64,000 nt of DNA from Nitrosopumilaceae archaeon (GTDB taxonomy: Archaea > Thermoproteota > Nitrososphaeria > Nitrososphaerales > Nitrosopumilaceae), in the NCBI GenBank assembly GCA_965214835.1, contig CBDCCK010000002.1, positions 1,056,001 to 1,120,000 of the forward strand. The letters run 5' to 3'. Position numbers and translations under genes: made by a program. The notes under the pieces were generated by a model. It ran no database searches and had not been told where the DNA came from. It worked only from the letters and a program-made list of their open reading frames with translations. Of the stretch, positions 30,270 to 48,850 are shown one piece after another (positions within the stretch are counted from its first letter, which is position 1; each line of letters begins with the position of its first letter).

Positions 30270-32150
30270 ATGGCAAAAGTTATAGGTATTGATCTGGGCA
30301 CGAGCAACTCTGCGGCAGCAGTCATGATGGGCGGAAAGCCGACTATCATCCCTGCAGCAGAGGGCGCCACGGTCGGCGGAAAGGCATTTCCCTCCGTGGT
30401 TGCATTTTCCAAGGAGGGTGATCTTCTAGTCGGGGAGCCTGCCCGGAGACAGGCCGTCACGAATCCTGAAAATACGATCGTCGCAGCCAAAAGGAAGATG
30501 GGAAGCGATTTCTTGTTTAAAATTCAAGGCAAGGACTACAAGCCACAGCAGATATCTGCATTTATCCTGCAAAAGATCAAAAAGGACGCCGAGGCCTTCA
30601 CCGGCGACAAAGTGGAAAAGGCCGTAATCACGGTTCCCGCATATTTTGATGACAACCAGAGACAGGCAACCAAGGATGCCGGCACCATTGCCGGCCTTGA
30701 TGTTGTCAGAATAATCAACGAGCCGACGGCCGCTTCACTGGCCTTTGGACTAGACAAGACAAAGCAGGACATGAAAATCCTTGTTTTTGACTTCGGCGGC
30801 GGCACGCTGGATGTCACCATAATGGAGATGGGCGGGGGTGTCTTTGAGGTAATGAGCACCTCAGGCGACACCCAGCTGGGGGGAACCGACATGGACAAGG
30901 CGCTAATCGACTATGTTGTTGATGAGTTCAAAAAGAAGGAGGGAACCGACCTCTCCCAGGATTCGACTGCCATGACAAGGGTCAGGGAGGCAGCTGAAAA
31001 GGCAAAGATTGAGCTGTCCACCGTCATGGAGACTGACATCAATCTGCCCTTTGTCGCCCATGATCCGTCAAGCGGCCCGAAAAACCTTGAGCTAAGATTG
31101 TCAAGGGCAAAGCTGGAGGACTTGATCAAGCCCGTCGTTGACCGCTGCAAGTCCTCGATCGACAAAGCCCTGGAGGATGCAAAACTGACTCCCTCTGATA
31201 TCACTAAGACCGTTCTTGTCGGAGGGCCGACGAGGATCCCACTGGTGAAAAAATTCGTAAGCGATGCGCTCGGAAGGGAGGCAGAGTCCGGCGTGGATCC
31301 CATGGAGGCCGTGGCCATGGGAGCTGCCATTCAGGCCGGAATCATTGCCGGCGATGTTGAGAGCGACATCGTCCTTTTGGACGTGACCCCGCTGACGCTG
31401 GGAATAGAGACGCTTGGAGGAGTGCGCGAGCCGCTAATTGAGAGGAACACGACAATACCCACCTCCAAAAGCAAGACATTCACCACTGCCGCCGACAACC
31501 AGACGGCCGTAACCATCCACGTAGTTCAGGGCGAGCGGCCGATGGCAACTGACAACGTCTCGCTGGGCAGCTTTAACCTGACTGACATCCCGCCTGCCCC
31601 ACGCGGCGTTCCCCAGATTGAGGTAAAGTTTGACATTGACGCCAATGGCATAATCAATGTCACGGCAAAGGATCTTGGTACGCAAAAGGAGGCAAAGATT
31701 ACCATCGAATCCAACTCCAAGCTGTCCCCTGACGAGATTGAAAAGCTAAAGGAGGATGCCGAAAAGTTTGCCGACGAGGACAAAAAGAAGAAAGAGTCCA
31801 TCGAGCTCAAGAACGAGGCCGAAAGCTACCTGTATACAACCGAGAAGCTAATCAGCCATGACCTAAAGGACAAGATCTCCCAGGAGCAGGGCATCAAGAT
31901 TTCTGATGCGATAAAGGAGGTCAGAGAGGTCTTGGACAAGGGTGCAGACGAGCTCAAGCCAAAGCTAGAGTCACTAAAGGCACTGGTAAACGAGGTTACG
32001 ACTGAACTGTACAAAAACATGACGCCTCCCCCCGGAGCAGAACAGGGTTCCGGTGAGCAGGCCGGCCAACAGGCCAATCAGCAGGCCGGCCAGGAGGGCG
32101 CTCAGCAGTCAGAATCCCAGTCTGATGATTCTACCAACAAAGCAAATTAA
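30270..32150 (+). CDS. dnaK: Chaperone DnaK
   Basis: [21 protein letters not shown]. Confidence 0.98.
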
Positions 32151-32175
32151 GGATAGCCCCCGCCTTTAAGCAGAA

Positions 32176-33261
32176 ATGAGCTCCAAACGCGATTACTACG
32201 AGGTCTTGGGGGTTGACAAGTCCGCATCTGTGGGCAACATCAAGGCGCAGTACAGGAAGCTGGCGCTAAAGTTTCACCCGGACAGAAACAAGTCCAAGGA
32301 GGCAGCTGAGCACTTTAAGGAGATCTCCGAGGCCTATGCCGTCCTGTCCGACCAGCAAAAGCGCCAGACCTATGATCAGTATGGACACCAGGGCATAGAC
32401 GGTCAGTACAGCCAGCAGGATATCTTCCGGGGCGCGAACTTTAACTTTAACGACCTGTTCGGAGGTTCAGGCGGGGGATTTGACTCTATTTTTGAAAACC
32501 TGTTTGGCGGGGAGAGGGGGTTTGGCGGCTATGGCAGGCAGCGCGGTTCTGACCTGCTTTATGAGACCCAGATCACCCTAGAGGAGGTCCTGCACGGAAA
32601 AAAACTGGAAATCGACATGAAAAAGGAGATTCCGTGCGAGACCTGCAGCGGCAAAGGCTGCAAGCCTGGAACCTCCAAGACCAGATGCACGTCATGCAAC
32701 GGGCAGGGACAGGTCAGGCAACAGCGCAGAATGGGGTTTGCATCATTTGTTACGGTTGTACCGTGCAACTCGTGCCGCGGGCAGGGGATGATGATCACTG
32801 ATCCCTGCGCCTCCTGCAAGGGAAGGGGCAAGACCAGGGGAAACAAGCACCTTGGCTTTGAAATTCCCCCCGGCACCCAGACCGGTGACTACACCATTCC
32901 CGGCGAGGGCGAGTATGTGCCTGATGGCGTGAGCGGGGATCTTGTGGTCAGGGTCAGGGTGCTGCCTCATTCGAAGTTCAGGCATGACGGTGTTGACCTG
33001 TTCTATGATCAGGACATAACAATCGTTGATGCTGCACTGGGGATAGAGGCGCTTGTCCCCACACTGGACGGAAGCGAGAAGATCAGGGTCGAGGAGGGAA
33101 CCCAGCCCAACTCCATCAGGAAGCTAAAAGGCAAGGGGCTGCCCTATCCGAATTCCGGCAGAAGGGGGGATCTTTTTGTCAGATTTGTCGTGCATGTGCC
33201 TGAAAAACTAGGCAAGGATCAAAAGAAGATTTTACGGGAATTTGAGCAGACACTTGGCTGA
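32176..33261 (+). CDS. dnaJ: Chaperone DnaJ
   Basis: HPD motif, G/F region, four CxxCxGxG repeats. Confidence 0.97.
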
Positions 33262-33267
33262 TTTTCC

Positions 33268-33813
33268 ATGAAGATTGCCCTTGATGTTGATGGCGTGCTA
33301 GCAGACGTCATACTCTCCTGGATCAAGCAGAGCAACCGGCACCGCGACCGGCTGACCAAGGAGCAGATCACCAGCTGGGATTTTTGGAGGAGCCACAACA
33401 TCAACAGGTATGATTTTTACAAGGAGCTGTCAGACTGCTGGAAAAGCTGGAAGACCGTTCCGCCAACGGAAAAAAGCCTGTCAAGGAGCACAAAAAGGCT
33501 GTCGGAGTTTGGCCAGGTTGATATTGTCACTGCCCGGGAAAAGTCTACCGATGAGTTTGTCAGACAGTGGCTGAGTCTTCACGACATCTCATACGACAGC
33601 TATGTCTCCGTTGTAGACGGCACACTCAAGGCCGGTCTTGACTATGACGTATTCATCGATGACTCGCCACTCAACGCAACTGCGCTCGCTGAAAAAAACA
33701 GGACTGTGCTGCTATATGAGCAGCCCTGGAATGCGGATTTTCACAACCCAAAGTCGGTTCGTATCTCCTCATTAAGCGACGCCATAGAAAGGATCAGCCG
33801 GATTTCTTCATGA
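33268..33813 (+). CDS. 5'(3')-deoxyribonucleotidase-like HAD hydrolase
   Basis: DVDGVLAD, IVTAR, FIDD, PWN. Confidence 0.85.
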   Translation: MKIALDVDGVLADVILSWIKQSNRHRDRLTKEQITSWDFWRSHNINRYDFYKELSDCWKSWKTVPPTEKSLSRSTKRLSEFGQVDIVTAREKSTDEFVRQWLSLHDISYDSYVSVVDGTLKAGLDYDVFIDDSPLNATALAEKNRTVLLYEQPWNADFHNPKSVRISSLSDAIERISRISS

Positions 33814-33961: not shown

Positions 33962-34321
33962 CAAGGCCGGCTATGCTGATGGTGTATTTGTACTGATCAA
34001 TAGAGAAACCGTAAGGCCTACTCTCATCGCAGAAGATAGGCAAGCTTGAGGCCCGGATTGACGACGTGTTCAGGGAGAGCCAGGAGCTCAAGACCCCTAG
34101 CTGGGCAGGGTTAACCGTAAACCCAAGATGACAAAAAGGGCAAGCATACCACTGACCCTCAAGGAATGGGACGCGCCGGATGCGGCTGCACACAAGGCCA
34201 AGATGCAAGTCCGCCCTGCTGCGCTCGGTTCTGGCAGGCTCCAAGGTGATTCCGGCGTTAGCCGCTAACGGTTACCGCCCGATCCTTACTTTTTTATAGG
34301 AATATCTCCAATAGATTATAA

Positions 34322-34416
34322 CGTTGGCGACGGGAATTGAACCCGCATGAACGGCCCGGCTAGGGGCCACTCGCCGAGGCTTCAGCTCGGTGGGCTTGCC
34401 AATGCCCAACACCAAC
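34322..34416 (-). tRNA. Atypical tRNA-like gene: GAA anticodon, long variable arm, G73
   Basis: GTTGGTG/CGCCAAC acceptor; GGGC/GCCC D-stem; CCGAG-CTGAAGC-CTCGG anticodon arm; 9-bp variable stem; GCGGG-TTCAATT-CCCGT T-arm. Confidence 0.8.
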
Positions 34417-34433
34417 GTTATTTTCTGCCTTGG

Positions 34434-34441
34434 TATATTTA
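34434..34441 (-). promoter_or_regulatory. Putative TATA box for the tRNA-like gene
   Basis: TAAATATA on the minus strand about 18-25 nt upstream of the predicted mature 5' end. Confidence 0.45.
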
Positions 34442-34451
34442 GATTAAAAAA

Positions 34452-34664
34452 TTAGGATTTCCTGACAGGCTTGATGATATGAATCCGGCACGCCTTTAGC
34501 GGATCACTGTCATCGGTTCTCTGCACCATGAGCAGCTTTGGCGTCTCAAAATCCTCGGTACACTTGGGGCAGGCGTACGTCAGAACCCGGAACTCGTTTG
34601 GATTCTTAGCGTGCTCAGCTGCGGATAATACACCAGCTGGGAGCCGCAGTTGATGCAGAAGCAC
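34452..34664 (-). CDS. Small hypothetical protein with CxxC
   Basis: YACPKC; start uncertain. Confidence 0.35.
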   Translation of the reverse strand: MLLHQLRLPAGVLSAAEHAKNPNEFRVLTYACPKCTEDFETPKLLMVQRTDDSDPLKACRIHIIKPVRKS

Positions 34665-34859
34665 TTGACTGTGGCCATCAGGCCTCCTCCACGAACTTGC
34701 ACTTGCAGACGGTACACGTTATGATCTGGCCGGGCTCGACCCGGGCTGTCTGCTCAATTACAGCAAGGCGTGACTATCAATCGTCTTATTATAGCAGCGA
34801 GCAGAAGTCTTTGAGTCAAAACAGGGTTCATTCGAAAAGTACAATGATCACGTAACCGG

Positions 34860-35347
34860 TGCAGTGGGCATGGCAAAAGAAACGGACGGCCTACGGGATC
34901 CTCCCCGTTCCGGATGCAGGCGAGGCGCACGGAAAAAGGATTGCCGCCATAATGAACCTATCCATTGAACGCAACAGTACCGACGTCATGACGGTGCGTG
35001 ATGGCACAAGGGATGCCACCGGGACAGAATACAACACAGGACATGTCCAAGGACTGATGCGCCGGCACGGCCTGTCGCACCGCAGGGTGCAAAATGTACA
35101 TGTCAGCCATGCCGCCCCAACCCGGCGGGATGGTGTACAGAAGGATCAGCGAGCTGCGGCATGCCATGTCTGAGTATTACAGGACGGCGTTGTTTGCCCG
35201 CCTTTACATGTACAAGTACATTTGCAGATCGCCGGTCAAAGCCCTCAATTACTTGTGACCGTTGTCATATTCAAGGAGGATTTGACGGATTATCTCAGGG
35301 AGCCCAAACCCCCCGATGTCAGGTTCGGGGTACTTTTCACTTAGCTG
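34860..35347 (+). mobile_element. Degraded IS remnants (IS630-like HTH fragment followed by an ISH3-type right end)
   Basis: YNTGHVQGLMRRHGLS resembles the IS630 winged HTH; GTACTTTTCACTTAGCTG end matches the MITE at 2907. Confidence 0.55.
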
Positions 35348-35388
35348 ATCACACAAGAAACTTATTCTAGAGCCTTGATCTGAAGGGT

Positions 35389-35473
35389 GCGGGAGTCGCC
35401 AAGCCTGGTCAAAGGCGTAAGGTTCAGGTCCTTATCTCCTAGGGGTTCGTGGGTTCGAATCCCACCTCCCGCA
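35389..35473 (+). tRNA. tRNA-Leu (CAG)
   Basis: GCGGGAG/CTCCCGC acceptor, TAAGG-TTCAGGT-CCTTA arm, long variable arm, A73. Confidence 0.95.
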
Positions 35474-36058: not shown

Positions 36059-37954
36059 TTATGACAACTTTTGTATTTTTTCCTGCAGTTTTCTGCTGAT
36101 CTTCTCTCCGGAGGTCTTGCCCCTGAGAGTCTTCATTGCGATTCCCATCAGGGGTCCCAGGGCTCGCTCCCCCTGCTTTTCAACAATTGACCTGTTCTCA
36201 TCTATGATCTGCTCTAGTGTGGAGTCTAGTTTTTCATCCGACAGGGACATATCGGAGGCCTCCCGTATGACCTGATCTGAGTCCCTGCCTGACATTATCC
36301 CCTCCAAAATCATCTCAACTGACTCTTTTGAAATCTTTTCACCATCAAGCAGTTCAAAAACCCGGATCATGGCCTTCCCTGACAGCCTTGTTTTGTCTAA
36401 TCCGCTGCGCTCCAAATTTGTAACCGTGGAGCACAGAGTGGATGCCACAAAGTTTGGCGAGCTTTTTGACGCCCCGCATATTTTTTCAAATATCCCCATA
36501 TACTCAGAATCAAAGATTTGCTCGGTCAGCTGGGCGTTTAGCTGATACCTATCTTGGATCTCTTTTATTGTTTGATCCCAAGATTTTGGAATGTTTCTAC
36601 GAGCATTCAAAAGATCCTGCTCAGAAATTATGACCGGCGGAATGTCGGTCTCTGGGTACATTCTAGCTGCACCCGGCCTTGGCCTTAGGAACTTTGTTTC
36701 CCCTGCCGGCGTTGCCAGTCTGGTATCTGCCGGAATTGCATGCTCCCTGATATGCTCAACTCTTTGTATGATCTGATCAATGATTGTGTGCATCCTCTCT
36801 GCTGGGGCAGCAAGAATCAAAAACGCGTCGTTTTCCGAAGCCTTTGTATTTTTTCTTATGTCTTCTACGTCTGCCTCCTCTACTCCGTAGTTTGGCAGCT
36901 CATCTGAATGAAACACCCCGCCTATTCCAAAAAATCTCACCATCTCTGCAACCTCCCTTCCCAGCCTGATTCCCTCATGAGGCATAAACCCGAACACGCC
37001 CCCTAAATTTTTAAAGACAATCCCAAAAATCCTGTGTCTCTTCCTGATTGCGTCCTGTACAATCCTTGATCTGCAGCTCCCCATTGCGCCTGTGATTTCA
37101 ATGCGATCCTCGCTGCTGTGGAGCCAGCCCCTGCCCCGGATCTCCTCTGAGATTTTCAATAGTCCGTGCTGCCGCCTTGCCTCATACTCGACGACCTTTT
37201 CCAGCTGATCTAGCTGCTGCACCCCCTTTACCTCTATGACCGCCCCGCCCATTATTGAAACGTTGATGTCCTGGCGAATCGAGCCCAGGCCTCTTTTGAC
37301 CCTCCTCGTGCTTCTTAGAATCCTGCCTAGTGCAAGTGCAATGTCCTTGATCTGCCCGGGTTCTGCCTCAAATGGCTCGGTGGCGATCTCTACTAGCGGA
37401 ACGCCGAGCCTTTCTAGTCCATATTTCCTCGCCGAGCCCTCGTCCCCGAGAATCTTTGCGGCATCCTCCTCTAGACAAATGGACTGGATTCCGATTTTTT
37501 TATCGCCTACCTCGTAATGGCCCCCCTGGGATACCAGCATGGTCCTTTGAAATCCTGTCGTATTGGAGCCGTCAATAACCGTTTTTCTCATTGGGAAGAT
37601 CTCCCTGAATATTCTTGATCCTAGTGCAGACGCTATGATCAGAGCCGTCTCCTTTGCATCTGCATCCAGCTCGTGTGGCGGCTCCTCGTCCTGCTCTACC
37701 AGGCAGCTGCTTTGGGGGTTTGCAAAGTACAGGATTGTCTTTGATTTCGCGCTCTCAAACAATGCGGCGGGATCAAGCTCCCCCAGCTCGCTTTTTGAGG
37801 CGCGCAGCCTTCTTTGAAACTTTATAGAGTACTCGTCTGACTCTATGGGCTGGCAGTTGCAAAATAACTTCTTGTTGGTGGCCAGCTGCTGGTGTATCTC
37901 AAGTCCGACCTTGACGCCAGCGTCTTTTATTGAGAATTTTTCCATGATGCCCAT
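36059..37954 (-). CDS. gatE: Glu-tRNA(Gln) amidotransferase subunit E
   Basis: GLEIHQQL, DGSNTTGFQRT, RMYPETD. Confidence 0.96.
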   Translation of the reverse strand: MGIMEKFSIKDAGVKVGLEIHQQLATNKKLFCNCQPIESDEYSIKFQRRLRASKSELGELDPAALFESAKSKTILYFANPQSSCLVEQDEEPPHELDADAKETALIIASALGSRIFREIFPMRKTVIDGSNTTGFQRTMLVSQGGHYEVGDKKIGIQSICLEEDAAKILGDEGSARKYGLERLGVPLVEIATEPFEAEPGQIKDIALALGRILRSTRRVKRGLGSIRQDINVSIMGGAVIEVKGVQQLDQLEKVVEYEARRQHGLLKISEEIRGRGWLHSSEDRIEITGAMGSCRSRIVQDAIRKRHRIFGIVFKNLGGVFGFMPHEGIRLGREVAEMVRFFGIGGVFHSDELPNYGVEEADVEDIRKNTKASENDAFLILAAPAERMHTIIDQIIQRVEHIREHAIPADTRLATPAGETKFLRPRPGAARMYPETDIPPVIISEQDLLNARRNIPKSWDQTIKEIQDRYQLNAQLTEQIFDSEYMGIFEKICGASKSSPNFVASTLCSTVTNLERSGLDKTRLSGKAMIRVFELLDGEKISKESVEMILEGIMSGRDSDQVIREASDMSLSDEKLDSTLEQIIDENRSIVEKQGERALGPLMGIAMKTLRGKTSGEKISRKLQEKIQKLS

Positions 37955-37955
37955 C

Positions 37956-39248
37956 CTATTCTGAAAATTCCGATGCTACCTTGTCTAGCATGATGCCCCT
38001 GATCCCGTCCCGGTCTTCTGAAACGCCTGCTGCCCACATTGCCTTGACTAGGGCAGTCTCTGGAATCATGTCCTCCAGCGGGACTATTCCCAAGCTGAGC
38101 AGGTCCCTGCCACTCTCATATACCGTCATCCTTACCCTTCCGTCAATGCACTGTGAGGTCATTCCCATGAAGATTCCCCTCTCCCCCATCCTCTTGATCA
38201 CGGGATACGTCCTTTTACCTATGTGCCCTAGCCCCGTTCCCTCGAAGATTACTGCCTTGTAACCTGACTCGGCAATCCCCTCCAAGATATCCGGGCTGAG
38301 TCCCGGGTAATATTTTACGAGCGCCACCCTTTCATCAAGTTTTATCCTTGGCCTGAACTCATTGCTGGCGAAGAATCGGCCCTTCAGGTTTCCATGCAGG
38401 GCCTCGTTTACGATCAAAAATGCGGGATCGTCCCCAATCGTTTGAAATGCCCCCCTCTTGCTTGTGTGGTTCTTTCTCACTCGTGTACCTATGTGGCATG
38501 CCACAGTATCGTCATTCCCATCCTGGTGCATCACGACATACACCCCGTTTGTCTTGCAGCCTGTCAGAAATCTTGCAGCTGCAATCAGGTTCAGTGCCGC
38601 ATCTGATGATGCCCTATCCGAGGATCTCTGTGATCCCACCAGGGCAATCGGAATCGGAAACCCTGCTAGTGCAAACGAAAGAAACGACGAGGTATAGTGC
38701 ATCGTGTCCGTCCCGTGTGCAATTATAACCCCCGCATATTTTTCCGGATCAGCGGTATCTTGGATGGCCTTTGCAATTTTCAGCCAGTGCTCTGGAACTA
38801 TGTTCTCTGAGTACTCTGAGAATAGTACCCCTGCATCAATGTTTGCTATTTTTGATAATTCCGGAATTGAATCATTTAGTTCCTGTGCCGTCAGTGTAGG
38901 GGTTACCGCACCCGTCCTGTAGTCTATCTTGCTTGCAATGGTGCCTCCTGTGGATAGCAGAAGGATGTCTGGCAGTTCCGGATTGCCCTTTGATTCCGGA
39001 TTGCCCTTTGATTTGCTCCTGCCTGTCGTAATTTTTTGAATATCGCTTATCTTCTCCAGCTCTATTCCTACGTTGTACCCGCTTTTCAGCTTGATAACTA
39101 TGTGCCTGTCGTCTGCATGCTCGTACCTTGGCATGATTATTCCCGCATATGTCAAGCCTGCAGAAATTTTTACGGAATCCCCCACCACGATCTGCCGTTT
39201 TTTGAGAAACTCAAGGGACTCTCCTGCATAGCCTCCAAATCCTGACAT
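37956..39248 (-). CDS. gatD: Glu-tRNA(Gln) amidotransferase subunit D
   Basis: TGGTIAS, HGTDT, SQRSSDR. Confidence 0.96.
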   Translation of the reverse strand: MSGFGGYAGESLEFLKKRQIVVGDSVKISAGLTYAGIIMPRYEHADDRHIVIKLKSGYNVGIELEKISDIQKITTGRSKSKGNPESKGNPELPDILLLSTGGTIASKIDYRTGAVTPTLTAQELNDSIPELSKIANIDAGVLFSEYSENIVPEHWLKIAKAIQDTADPEKYAGVIIAHGTDTMHYTSSFLSFALAGFPIPIALVGSQRSSDRASSDAALNLIAAARFLTGCKTNGVYVVMHQDGNDDTVACHIGTRVRKNHTSKRGAFQTIGDDPAFLIVNEALHGNLKGRFFASNEFRPRIKLDERVALVKYYPGLSPDILEGIAESGYKAVIFEGTGLGHIGKRTYPVIKRMGERGIFMGMTSQCIDGRVRMTVYESGRDLLSLGIVPLEDMIPETALVKAMWAAGVSEDRDGIRGIMLDKVASEFSE

Positions 39249-48510: not shown

Positions 48511-48554
48511 AAGACAGTTCTTTGAAATTAGTATATAGTAGTAGCCCTACTGGT

Positions 48555-48850
48555 TCCGATCCAGACCGGTGACCCCATTTCAGGGCGTACAAGATCCGCC
48601 ACGTTGACGAAGAAGCGTGGATGCCCCACCTTAGGATTGCTCCCTCCCGGACCTCGTCCCTTTCGATGGCTCAGTCTTGAAAGTTATCCCTTCGGATAAT
48701 TCCAGTCTTGCAACCACCCGCTTCGGCGTGATTTCATTTCCGCACGCCAAGCGGGAATCACCCTTCTAGAGATTTACCCAGTAGTTACTGATCTCTGCAT
48801 ATAGCCGGTTTCAGAACAGGGCACGGCTGGCGCCCCGATCCTACCTACTA
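48555..48850 (-). ncRNA. ffs: Archaeal SRP (7S) RNA
   Basis: Alu-like GGGGCGCCAGCCGTGCCCTGTTCTGAAACCGGC and helix-8-like ACGAGGTCCGGGAGGGAGCAA; ends approximate. Confidence 0.8.

Follow-up and report, generated by a model that had tools for sequence, protein, structure and literature searches.

What is the role of a tRNA gene that joins a Phe anticodon to a class II body with a long variable arm and G73, and which amino acid would its product carry? The question is raised by a minus-strand locus at 34322-34416 of a 64,000-nucleotide stretch (the window; positions 1,056,001 to 1,120,000 of contig CBDCCK010000002.1, assembly GCA_965214835.1) from a Nitrosopumilaceae archaeon, where a first-pass annotation made from the letters alone had described a single hybrid tRNA. 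Judged by sequence comparison, the locus is an intact gene for a supernumerary class II tRNA and belongs to a multi-copy family of some Nitrosopumilaceae. Our comparisons establish a gene family with a selected tRNA fold and switching anticodons, which coexists with a normal tRNA-Phe and arrived recently at this site. The parts of the gene are as follows.

34322..34416, minus strand: supernumerary class II tRNA gene (positions 1-73) with anticodon GAA and G73 (ARAGORN, Rfam, family covariance model R1, fold)
34381..34383, minus strand: anticodon G34 A35 A36 in the loop CUGAAGC (sequence, ARAGORN drawing)
34349..34372, minus strand: variable arm with a 9-bp stem and a 6-nt loop (drawing, fold); all nine pairs are double-changed among 21 copies
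34417..34421, minus strand: 5' leader ATAAC, which can pair with the trailer at 34318-34322 (this copy alone)

The Phe anticodon and the class II G73 body were both borne out. ARAGORN called three tRNA genes in the window, one of them a tRNA-Phe(gaa) of 97 nt at 34321-34417 (-), and the Rfam tRNA model RF00005 matched 34322-34416 (-) with 45.7 bits, above its gathering score of 29, at E 1.5e-6 over the 64-kb window. R1 gave the same gene, hereafter the GAA copy, 112.6 bits. Its 95 nt form a five-arm cloverleaf with an acceptor stem of 7 bp (one U.G), a D arm with a 4-bp stem and an 8-nt loop containing GG, a 5-bp anticodon stem closing the loop CUGAAGC, a variable region of 27 nt whose 9-bp stem includes two G.U pairs, and a T arm with a 5-bp stem (one G.U) and a standard T loop; the discriminator is G73 and CCA is not encoded. 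The ARAGORN drawing agrees with the stems read from the sequence, and the minus strand adopts the same five-arm cloverleaf as its minimum-free-energy fold (-45.3 kcal/mol, z -2.98; one of 200 shuffles did as well), while folding of the plus strand gave no cloverleaf. The general marks of a tRNA are present as well (U8, A14, G18G19, U33, purine 37, a GTTC-purine-A T loop and C61). A chance origin of the cloverleaf is excluded because the gene has paralogues and its stems covary. Two further contigs (X1 record 4 and X5 record 19) do not differ from the GAA copy by any letter across the anticodon, and a third (X3 record 9) differs by one letter, at 34425, outside the tRNA; these contigs come from two coded studies, and the assembly may derive from one of the runs.

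Several familiar identities do not fit this structure. A canonical tRNA-Phe has a class I body with a 4-5-nt variable loop and A73, and a tRNA-Leu combines its long arm with A73, as the canonical tRNA-Leu of this genome does; readings as a selenocysteine tRNA (tRNA-Sec), a pyrrolysine tRNA or a transfer-messenger RNA fail on structure. The organism does have an ordinary tRNA-Phe. ARAGORN called four GAA tRNAs over the whole home genome (G000; 3.22 Mb, GC content 52.6%), and one of them, at C2:2398337-2398413, has A73 and CCA; its canonical counterpart is present in five of five other family-bearing genomes with 94-100% identity.

The gene could still be an ordinary tRNA-Phe if the 'arm' were a non-canonical intron cut out by the archaeal splicing endonuclease, and many non-canonical tRNA introns occur in Thaumarchaeota, according to PMC8450103. 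The first-pass annotation had seen no clear bulge-helix-bulge motif. That impression held: a custom script found no bulge-helix-bulge candidate bracketing the arm in the GAA copy, where the arm is an unbroken 9-bp helix, and it is a continuous helix of 8-9 bp in the aligned copies of both genera compared. The sole candidate within the arm of the other-genus copy is a register shift and would not leave a variable loop of 4-5 nt. With G73 rather than A73, a canonical tRNA-Phe elsewhere in the genome and siblings that bear Ile and Leu anticodons, we give the intron explanation next to no credence.

The gene is not the lone Phe hybrid it had been taken for. The home genome holds six copies of the long-arm family, scoring 65-117 bits with R1, whose anticodons are GAA, GAU (three copies) and CAG (two copies), and across the whole family Leu (NAG) and Ile (GAU) anticodons predominate.

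C2:182875: family copy, GAU
C2:1090321: family copy under study, GAA
C2:1824008: family copy, GAU, D arm partly deleted
C2:1826707: family copy, GAU
C2:2887467: family copy, CAG
C2:914323: sixth family copy, CAG, more diverged, with compensating changes in the acceptor and T stems

Five of these loci have a body in common that matches the GAA copy nearly base for base. The anticodon loops of the paralogues are CUGAUGC, CUGAUAC and UUCAGAC, and the loop of the GAA copy is one base away from the GAU loop of copies A and C and otherwise identical to it. On this comparison the 'Phe hybrid' is a one-step variant inside a family that reads Leu, Ile and Phe codons.

The compensatory changes that a homologue search was expected to reveal if the fold were selected are abundant. 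We aligned 21 copies to the family model, and in this alignment, whose fitting to the structure favours pairing counts, 98.2% of 602 stem cells are paired; sliding the 3' partners lowers this to 38-52%. Double-sided changes occur in 23 of the 30 pairs, including all nine pairs of the variable arm. None of 500 shuffles reached the observed pairing values, a significance that is overstated because kin copies are not independent. The compensations are, in any event, visible directly in the raw sequences, and they occur within and between genera and also in a syntenic pair of loci in another genus (L025/L027). Among five close copies the stems differ at 0-0.11 per site, the proximal and distal upstream flanks at 0.18 and 0.33, the downstream flank at 0.20, the loop of the variable arm at 0.25 and the anticodon loop at 0.39. 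The fold is thus conserved while the anticodon loop evolves no more slowly than unconstrained DNA.

These rates bear on the simplest explanation, that the family is a functionless tRNA-derived repeat, duplicated by insertion sequences and drifting, in which GAA arose as a neutral mutation. Such a repeat would account for the damage in copies A and C, the repeat-rich setting and the absence of the locus in congeners. It would not be expected to keep stems 3-10 times less variable than the flanks, to accumulate compensatory changes, to conserve an upstream block, or to hold U33, A35, purine 37 and G73 while positions 34 and 36 vary, and we consider it very unlikely.

The anticodons themselves follow a pattern. 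In the 21 aligned copies they are GAU (6), CAG (5), UAG (4), GAA (2), AAG (2) and GAG (2); U33 and G73 are each present in 20 of the copies, and A35 and a purine at 37 in every one; the loop is of the decoding type. Six more loops bring the count for A35 to 27 of 27, and 14 of these 27 loops have Leu NAG anticodons. Position 34 takes four different bases and position 36 three, with the result that every anticodon reads NUN codons (Leu CUN, Ile AUY, Phe UUY).

We searched 151 genomes of Nitrosopumilaceae with R1, which was built from six copies; the genome samples are partial. Matches of at least 56 bits were found only in the home genome (6), its congener G002 (1), G061 (1), and G088 and G105 (4 and 7), the last two being large genomes of another genus, and the genome of locus L017 (G167) has two copies. 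Any match at E <= 1e-5 was obtained in 30 of the 151. Eleven of the weaker loci were examined and comprised six ordinary tRNA-Ser(GCU), two ordinary tRNA-Leu(UAG) and three class II tRNAs with odd anticodons (GAU with G73, GAA with G73, AAG with A73). Further class II G73 tRNAs carry GAA in G049, G090 and G124 and GAU in G061, G122 and G160 (two copies in G160); the GAA genes of G049 and G090 are syntenic, and their D and anticodon stems differ by paired changes. A related copy, L049, has A73 and CCA. The copies of the other genus have different acceptor, anticodon-stem and variable-arm sequences on the same architecture, with an arm of 8 bp; the variable-arm sequence is unrelated between the two genera and still helical.

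Wider searches added little. An order-level sample of 151 genomes yielded one added hit, of 47 bits, which resembles a bacterial-type tRNA-Leu. Two pattern scans of viral contigs returned no matches, which is no proof of absence. A pattern scan of genome contigs returned three stretches, two of them true copies (L017, L018); the third, L019 in a Burkholderiales metagenome-assembled genome (MAG), was not recognised as a tRNA by ARAGORN and was taken as chance. The single stretch from a metagenome scan with a degenerate family pattern (L057) likewise gave no tRNA with ARAGORN and looks like chance. Separately, L026 (G155) and L086 (G225) are bacterial-looking tRNA-Leu genes in two archaeal MAGs and possibly lie on contaminating contigs.

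Which amino acid would such a tRNA carry? We tentatively favour a Ser-charged missense tRNA, that is, a selected, promoter-bearing extra class II tRNA that would misread Phe codons, as a possibility somewhat short of probable. Every family copy has a TATA-like block of its own and moves as a unit of ~150-220 bp into repeat-rich or intergenic DNA. Its product would be transcribed, processed and CCA-tailed like an ordinary tRNA. The single seryl-tRNA synthetase (SerRS) would then load the GAA copy with serine, because SerRS recognises G73 together with the long arm regardless of the anticodon, and the product would act as a low-level or conditional missense tRNA, from Phe to Ser. PMC7609411 and PMC9976931 report that SerRS depends on G73 and the long arm and disregards the anticodon, and the latter gives G30:C40 as a weaker archaeal determinant. 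The GAA copy has G73 and a long arm and, like the tRNA-Ser of this genome, two unpaired bases on the 3' side of that arm; an arm of 9 bp is atypical for tRNA-Ser, and its orientation cannot be judged from sequence. By model score the nearest canonical tRNA is tRNA-Ser(GCU), at 39.4 bits against 30-35 for Leu. The Seryl_tRNA_N arm domain has one match in each of five genomes. No second SerRS was seen in the five genomes, where the individual tRNA-synt_2b matches were not identified and an extra class II enzyme is possible; these matches number 6, 4, 5 and 5 in four family-bearing genomes and 4 in G005, which is without the family.

A number of observations weigh against serine. The determinant G30:C40 is absent, with A30:U40 in the GAA copy and U30:A40 in the other genus, and the two canonical tRNA-Ser of this genome that we parsed (GCU and UGA) have G:C at 30:40. 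Nor does the Ser-recoding idea predict the invariant A35; judged from the loops, serylation blind to the anticodon would explain this invariance less well than a Leu-like or anticodon-directed charge or an anticodon-binding protein would. Positions 36 and 37 are not coupled as in canonical tRNAs, and 9 of the 14 NAG loops have A37 as opposed to G37 in the three canonical tRNA-Leu(NAG). Two of the six copies in the home genome are damaged, copy A by a mismatch and the loss of the D stem and copy C by a D-arm deletion and a cut by IS66; the family therefore also decays. In the GAA copy the TATA-like block lies 4-5 nt nearer the tRNA than in copies A, D and E. The same copy has the 5-bp extension of the acceptor helix by its leader and trailer (ATAAC/GTTAT) that the first-pass annotation had pointed out, and this helix could hinder end processing; as a family feature the extension did not stand, for it is kept neither in the paralogues nor in the other genus. 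The structure-guided alignment behind the pairing counts calls for caution on the same side.

Some of these points suit a second possibility, in which the family consists of functional extra tRNAs that carry a hydrophobic amino acid, loaded either by leucyl-tRNA synthetase (LeuRS) through the long arm or by the PheRS, IleRS or LeuRS that matches the anticodon. Little or no miscoding would then follow, and the genes would be spare or mobile decoding capacity for NUN codons. The constancy of A35, with anticodons that are all Leu, Ile or Phe, is the outcome expected of a filter against radical substitutions if the cargo is hydrophobic. The majority of loops being Leu NAG, a CUGAAGC loop that is one position off that of canonical tRNA-Phe, the A73 and CCA of L049, and the nematode nev-tRNAs, which are Leu-charged despite Gly or Ile anticodons according to PMC3333845, all argue in this direction. 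The discriminator argues the other way, as 20 of 21 copies have G73 where three canonical tRNA-Leu and the tRNA-Phe of this genome have A73. Haloferax LeuRS reportedly needs A73. In E. coli this base is the strong Leu determinant (PMC9976931). In addition, the NAG copies mostly have A37 where canonical tRNA-Leu has G37, and a D arm with a 4-bp stem and an 8-nt loop is unlike that of canonical tRNA-Leu. We regard hydrophobic charging as fairly improbable.

The TATA-like box that had been remarked upstream of the gene is indeed present and conserved among paralogues.

34432..34451, minus strand: AT-rich TATA-like block, putative promoter, conserved among paralogues (alignments, comparison with the upstream regions of canonical tRNA genes)
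34281..34321, minus strand: conserved 3' flank ending in an A-run/TATA-like motif (alignments of copies)
34446..34460, minus strand: upstream T-rich motif that repeats the 3' flank motif imperfectly in inverted orientation (comparison of aligned sequences)

The distance of the block from the gene resembles that upstream of the canonical tRNA genes of this genome. The block of sequence common to the copies of the home genome extends from ~55-80 bp upstream through ~45 bp downstream. Read on the opposite strand, the 3' flank is a T-run with a TATA-like box directed back into the gene. The other genus has an analogous TTATAAAA motif 25-35 nt downstream of the tRNA, and in both genera a TATA-like box ~25-35 nt downstream faces back into the gene. 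From its arrangement, this inward box might serve antisense transcription or belong to a recombination-related inverted repeat. The same pair of T-rich motifs flanks different cargo at the orthologous site of congener G002 (L080, G002:C61, ~1030-1420), where an open reading frame (ORF) of ~125 amino acids on the opposite strand replaces the 146-bp promoter-plus-tRNA; the sequences suggest a cassette-like replacement between the motifs. A similar motif pair at C2:1750267/1750418 has no tRNA between its members.

Recent acquisition, one of two explanations offered earlier for intact pairing amid decayed neighbours, is supported by comparison with congeners. In G001 and G004 the NT5C-like gene is followed by tRNA-Leu(CAG) within ~40-190 bp, and the ~1.4 kb of repeat-rich DNA that separates them in the window is absent.

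33964..35354, no strand: ~1.4-kb insert between the NT5C-like gene and tRNA-Leu(CAG), missing from congeners G001 and G004 (locus comparison)
34885..35264, no strand: the two ends of a repeat that occurs more than 20 times elsewhere in this genome (repeat comparison)
35389..35473, plus strand: ordinary tRNA-Leu(CAG) with A73, neighbour and syntenic anchor (ARAGORN, Rfam)

The insert contains the tRNA-like gene, short ORFs without a Pfam match, and repeats. It is flanked by housekeeping genes, namely Hsp70, DnaJ and the NT5C-like nucleotidase (30270-33813) on one side and GatE and GatD (36059-39248) on the other. The ends of the repeat are ~460 bp apart in paired copies, and dozens of copies exist in G002 and G167; at 34885-35264 the ends are adjacent, and this is therefore an internally deleted copy resembling a miniature inverted-repeat transposable element (MITE).

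Elsewhere in the family the surroundings vary. IS66 transposases adjoin copies C, D and F, and an rve integrase is near copy A. Next to copy A we also observed a 584-amino-acid protein matching the PADLOC candidate PDC-M33A (L001:4595-6349 (-), E 1e-72) and a 164-amino-acid fragment resembling a Type I specificity subunit (HsdS-like; L001:7231-7725 (+)). Directly upstream of copies D, E and L017, in two species, is a conserved protein of ~116-140 amino acids that has a hydrophobic helix at its N-terminus.

L002:9080-9502, plus strand: conserved protein, no Pfam or PADLOC match
L003:7273-7623, minus strand: the same
L017:920-1324, minus strand: the same

In the other genus the copies lie between housekeeping genes, and their presence varies between congeners. 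In G088, two tandem copies (L093, G088:C1 2286-2555) are just upstream of, and divergent from, the threonyl-tRNA synthetase gene, and another (L056) is ~730 bp upstream of the alanyl-tRNA synthetase gene; both adjacencies may be coincidence. A filled and an empty site in G088 and G105 differ by ~1.15 kb of extra, mostly unique DNA with no duplication. The 345- and 372-amino-acid 'ORFs' beside two G105 copies are rich in Arg, Ala, Gly and Pro and look spurious. Congener comparisons revealed neither a target-site duplication nor a clean unit boundary, and the T-rich flanks are imperfectly inverted. No second copy of the anticodon arm was found within 3 kb of five family copies. Clustering of the neighbouring genes returned as recurrent only transposases, the membrane protein of ~135 amino acids at three loci, and HsdS-like fragments, with no partner nuclease or toxin.

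This setting invites a third possibility, that the RNA is a non-ribosomal tRNA mimic, acting as a decoy or sponge for anticodon-loop nucleases or modification enzymes, or as a regulatory or maintenance RNA of the mobile unit or of the surrounding defence and mobile DNA. The first-pass annotation had likewise raised a decoy and a non-ribosomal aminoacyl donor, neither of which gained direct support here. Consistent with a mimic are the location of copies in DNA of the mobile or defence type (IS66 at C, D and F; rve, HsdS-like and PDC-M33A near A; MITE-like repeats in the window), the inverted T-rich flanks with an inward TATA-like box on the far side in both genera, and an anticodon loop that varies fastest while U33, A35 and purine 37 stay fixed, as would be expected with a loop-reading protein partner. 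However, no nuclease or toxin gene recurs beside the copies, the neighbours in the other genus are housekeeping genes, and the conservation of elbow and acceptor is equally expected of a working tRNA. A purely non-ribosomal role seems unlikely to us. A broader proposal would cover the family as a promoter-bearing set of class II tRNAs with NAN anticodons and Ser-type marks, serving either as conditional missense tRNAs from Leu, Ile and Phe to Ser or as anticodon-loop decoys, with A35 kept by a partner that reads it. We hold this to be somewhat unlikely; if it is true, allo-tRNAs and nev-tRNAs would have their first counterpart in archaea.

The first-pass annotation had also compared the gene with allo-tRNAs, and the analogy is apt. 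Allo-tRNAs combine Ser-type marks with non-Ser anticodons, and in E. coli some of them read Leu codons as Ser, according to Mukai et al. 2017 (PMC5389517) and a review (PMC7609411). Like the archaeal family, they have a long arm, G73 and diverse anticodons on one scaffold, are often near transposon or toxin-antitoxin DNA and include some degenerate copies. They differ in having an 8/4 or 9/3 branch and in coming from Clostridia, Proteobacteria and Acidobacteria, as these sources describe them. With a 7-bp acceptor and a 5-bp T stem (7/5), an arm of 8-9 bp and NAN anticodons only, the archaeal genes are not allo-tRNAs in the strict sense.

The nematode nev-tRNAs, as presented by Hamashima et al. 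2012 (PMC3333845) and in PMC4033280, are likewise class II tRNAs with non-Leu/Ser anticodons, including Ile, and both groups are lineage-specific and multi-copy and exist beside normal tRNAs; the nev-tRNAs, however, are eukaryotic, derived from tRNA-Leu and Leu-charged, whereas the archaeal family carries G73 and lies marginally closer to tRNA-Ser by score. Canonical archaeal tRNA-Ser and tRNA-Leu share the long variable arm with the GAA copy, and tRNA-Ser also the G73 and the two unpaired bases 3' of the arm, but the arm of the GAA copy is about twice as long, its D loop has 8 nt, and it has no G30:C40 and no Ser or Leu anticodon. G73 and a long variable arm also occur in tRNA-Sec, which in archaea has a 13-bp acceptor/T branch (9/4) and a D stem of 6-7 bp; the GAA copy has a 12-bp branch (7/5), a 4-bp D stem and an anticodon other than UCA.

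A full-text literature search, with supplementary tables outside its coverage, brought up no comparable family in archaea, and the table of a 2014 review (PMC4033280) gives nev-tRNAs for nematodes only and no archaeal example. Mismatch between body and anticodon in natural tRNAs supplies raw material for genetic-code change and regulated mistranslation, and the family bears on whether archaea tolerate or use missense tRNAs and on what reads A35. Being archaeal, multi-copy and clearly selected, it offers a compact, testable case. In annotation, such genes will be labelled tRNA-Phe, tRNA-Ile or tRNA-Leu and will inflate tRNA counts.

Other tRNA-like sets were encountered in the home genome. Four 72-nt tRNA-like genes with A73 score 60-62 bits with the Rfam tRNA model and have a weak fifth pair in the anticodon stem. 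A partial copy of the D arm and anticodon arm lies ~35-75 nt upstream of each gene, and in alignment this partial copy has the gene's own anticodon triplet at all four loci.

C2:66616-66687, minus strand: 72-nt family, anticodon AAG
C2:2234423-2234494, plus strand: 72-nt family, GAA
C2:2756709-2756780, plus strand: 72-nt family, AAG
C2:3019690-3019761, plus strand: 72-nt family, GAG

A third set consists of Ser-like class II tRNA genes with a long arm. Three have an unambiguous acceptor end, with G73, and T-run terminators follow two or three of the genes.

C2:148333-148419, minus strand: third set, anticodon CCU
C2:381278-381363, minus strand: third set, UAU
C2:702318-702406, plus strand: third set, 6-nt anticodon loop
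C2:2806142-2806226, plus strand: third set, GAA

Finally, the window includes an archaeal signal recognition particle RNA at 48539-48850 (-), whose score of 113.2 bits is modestly over the 96.5-bit threshold.

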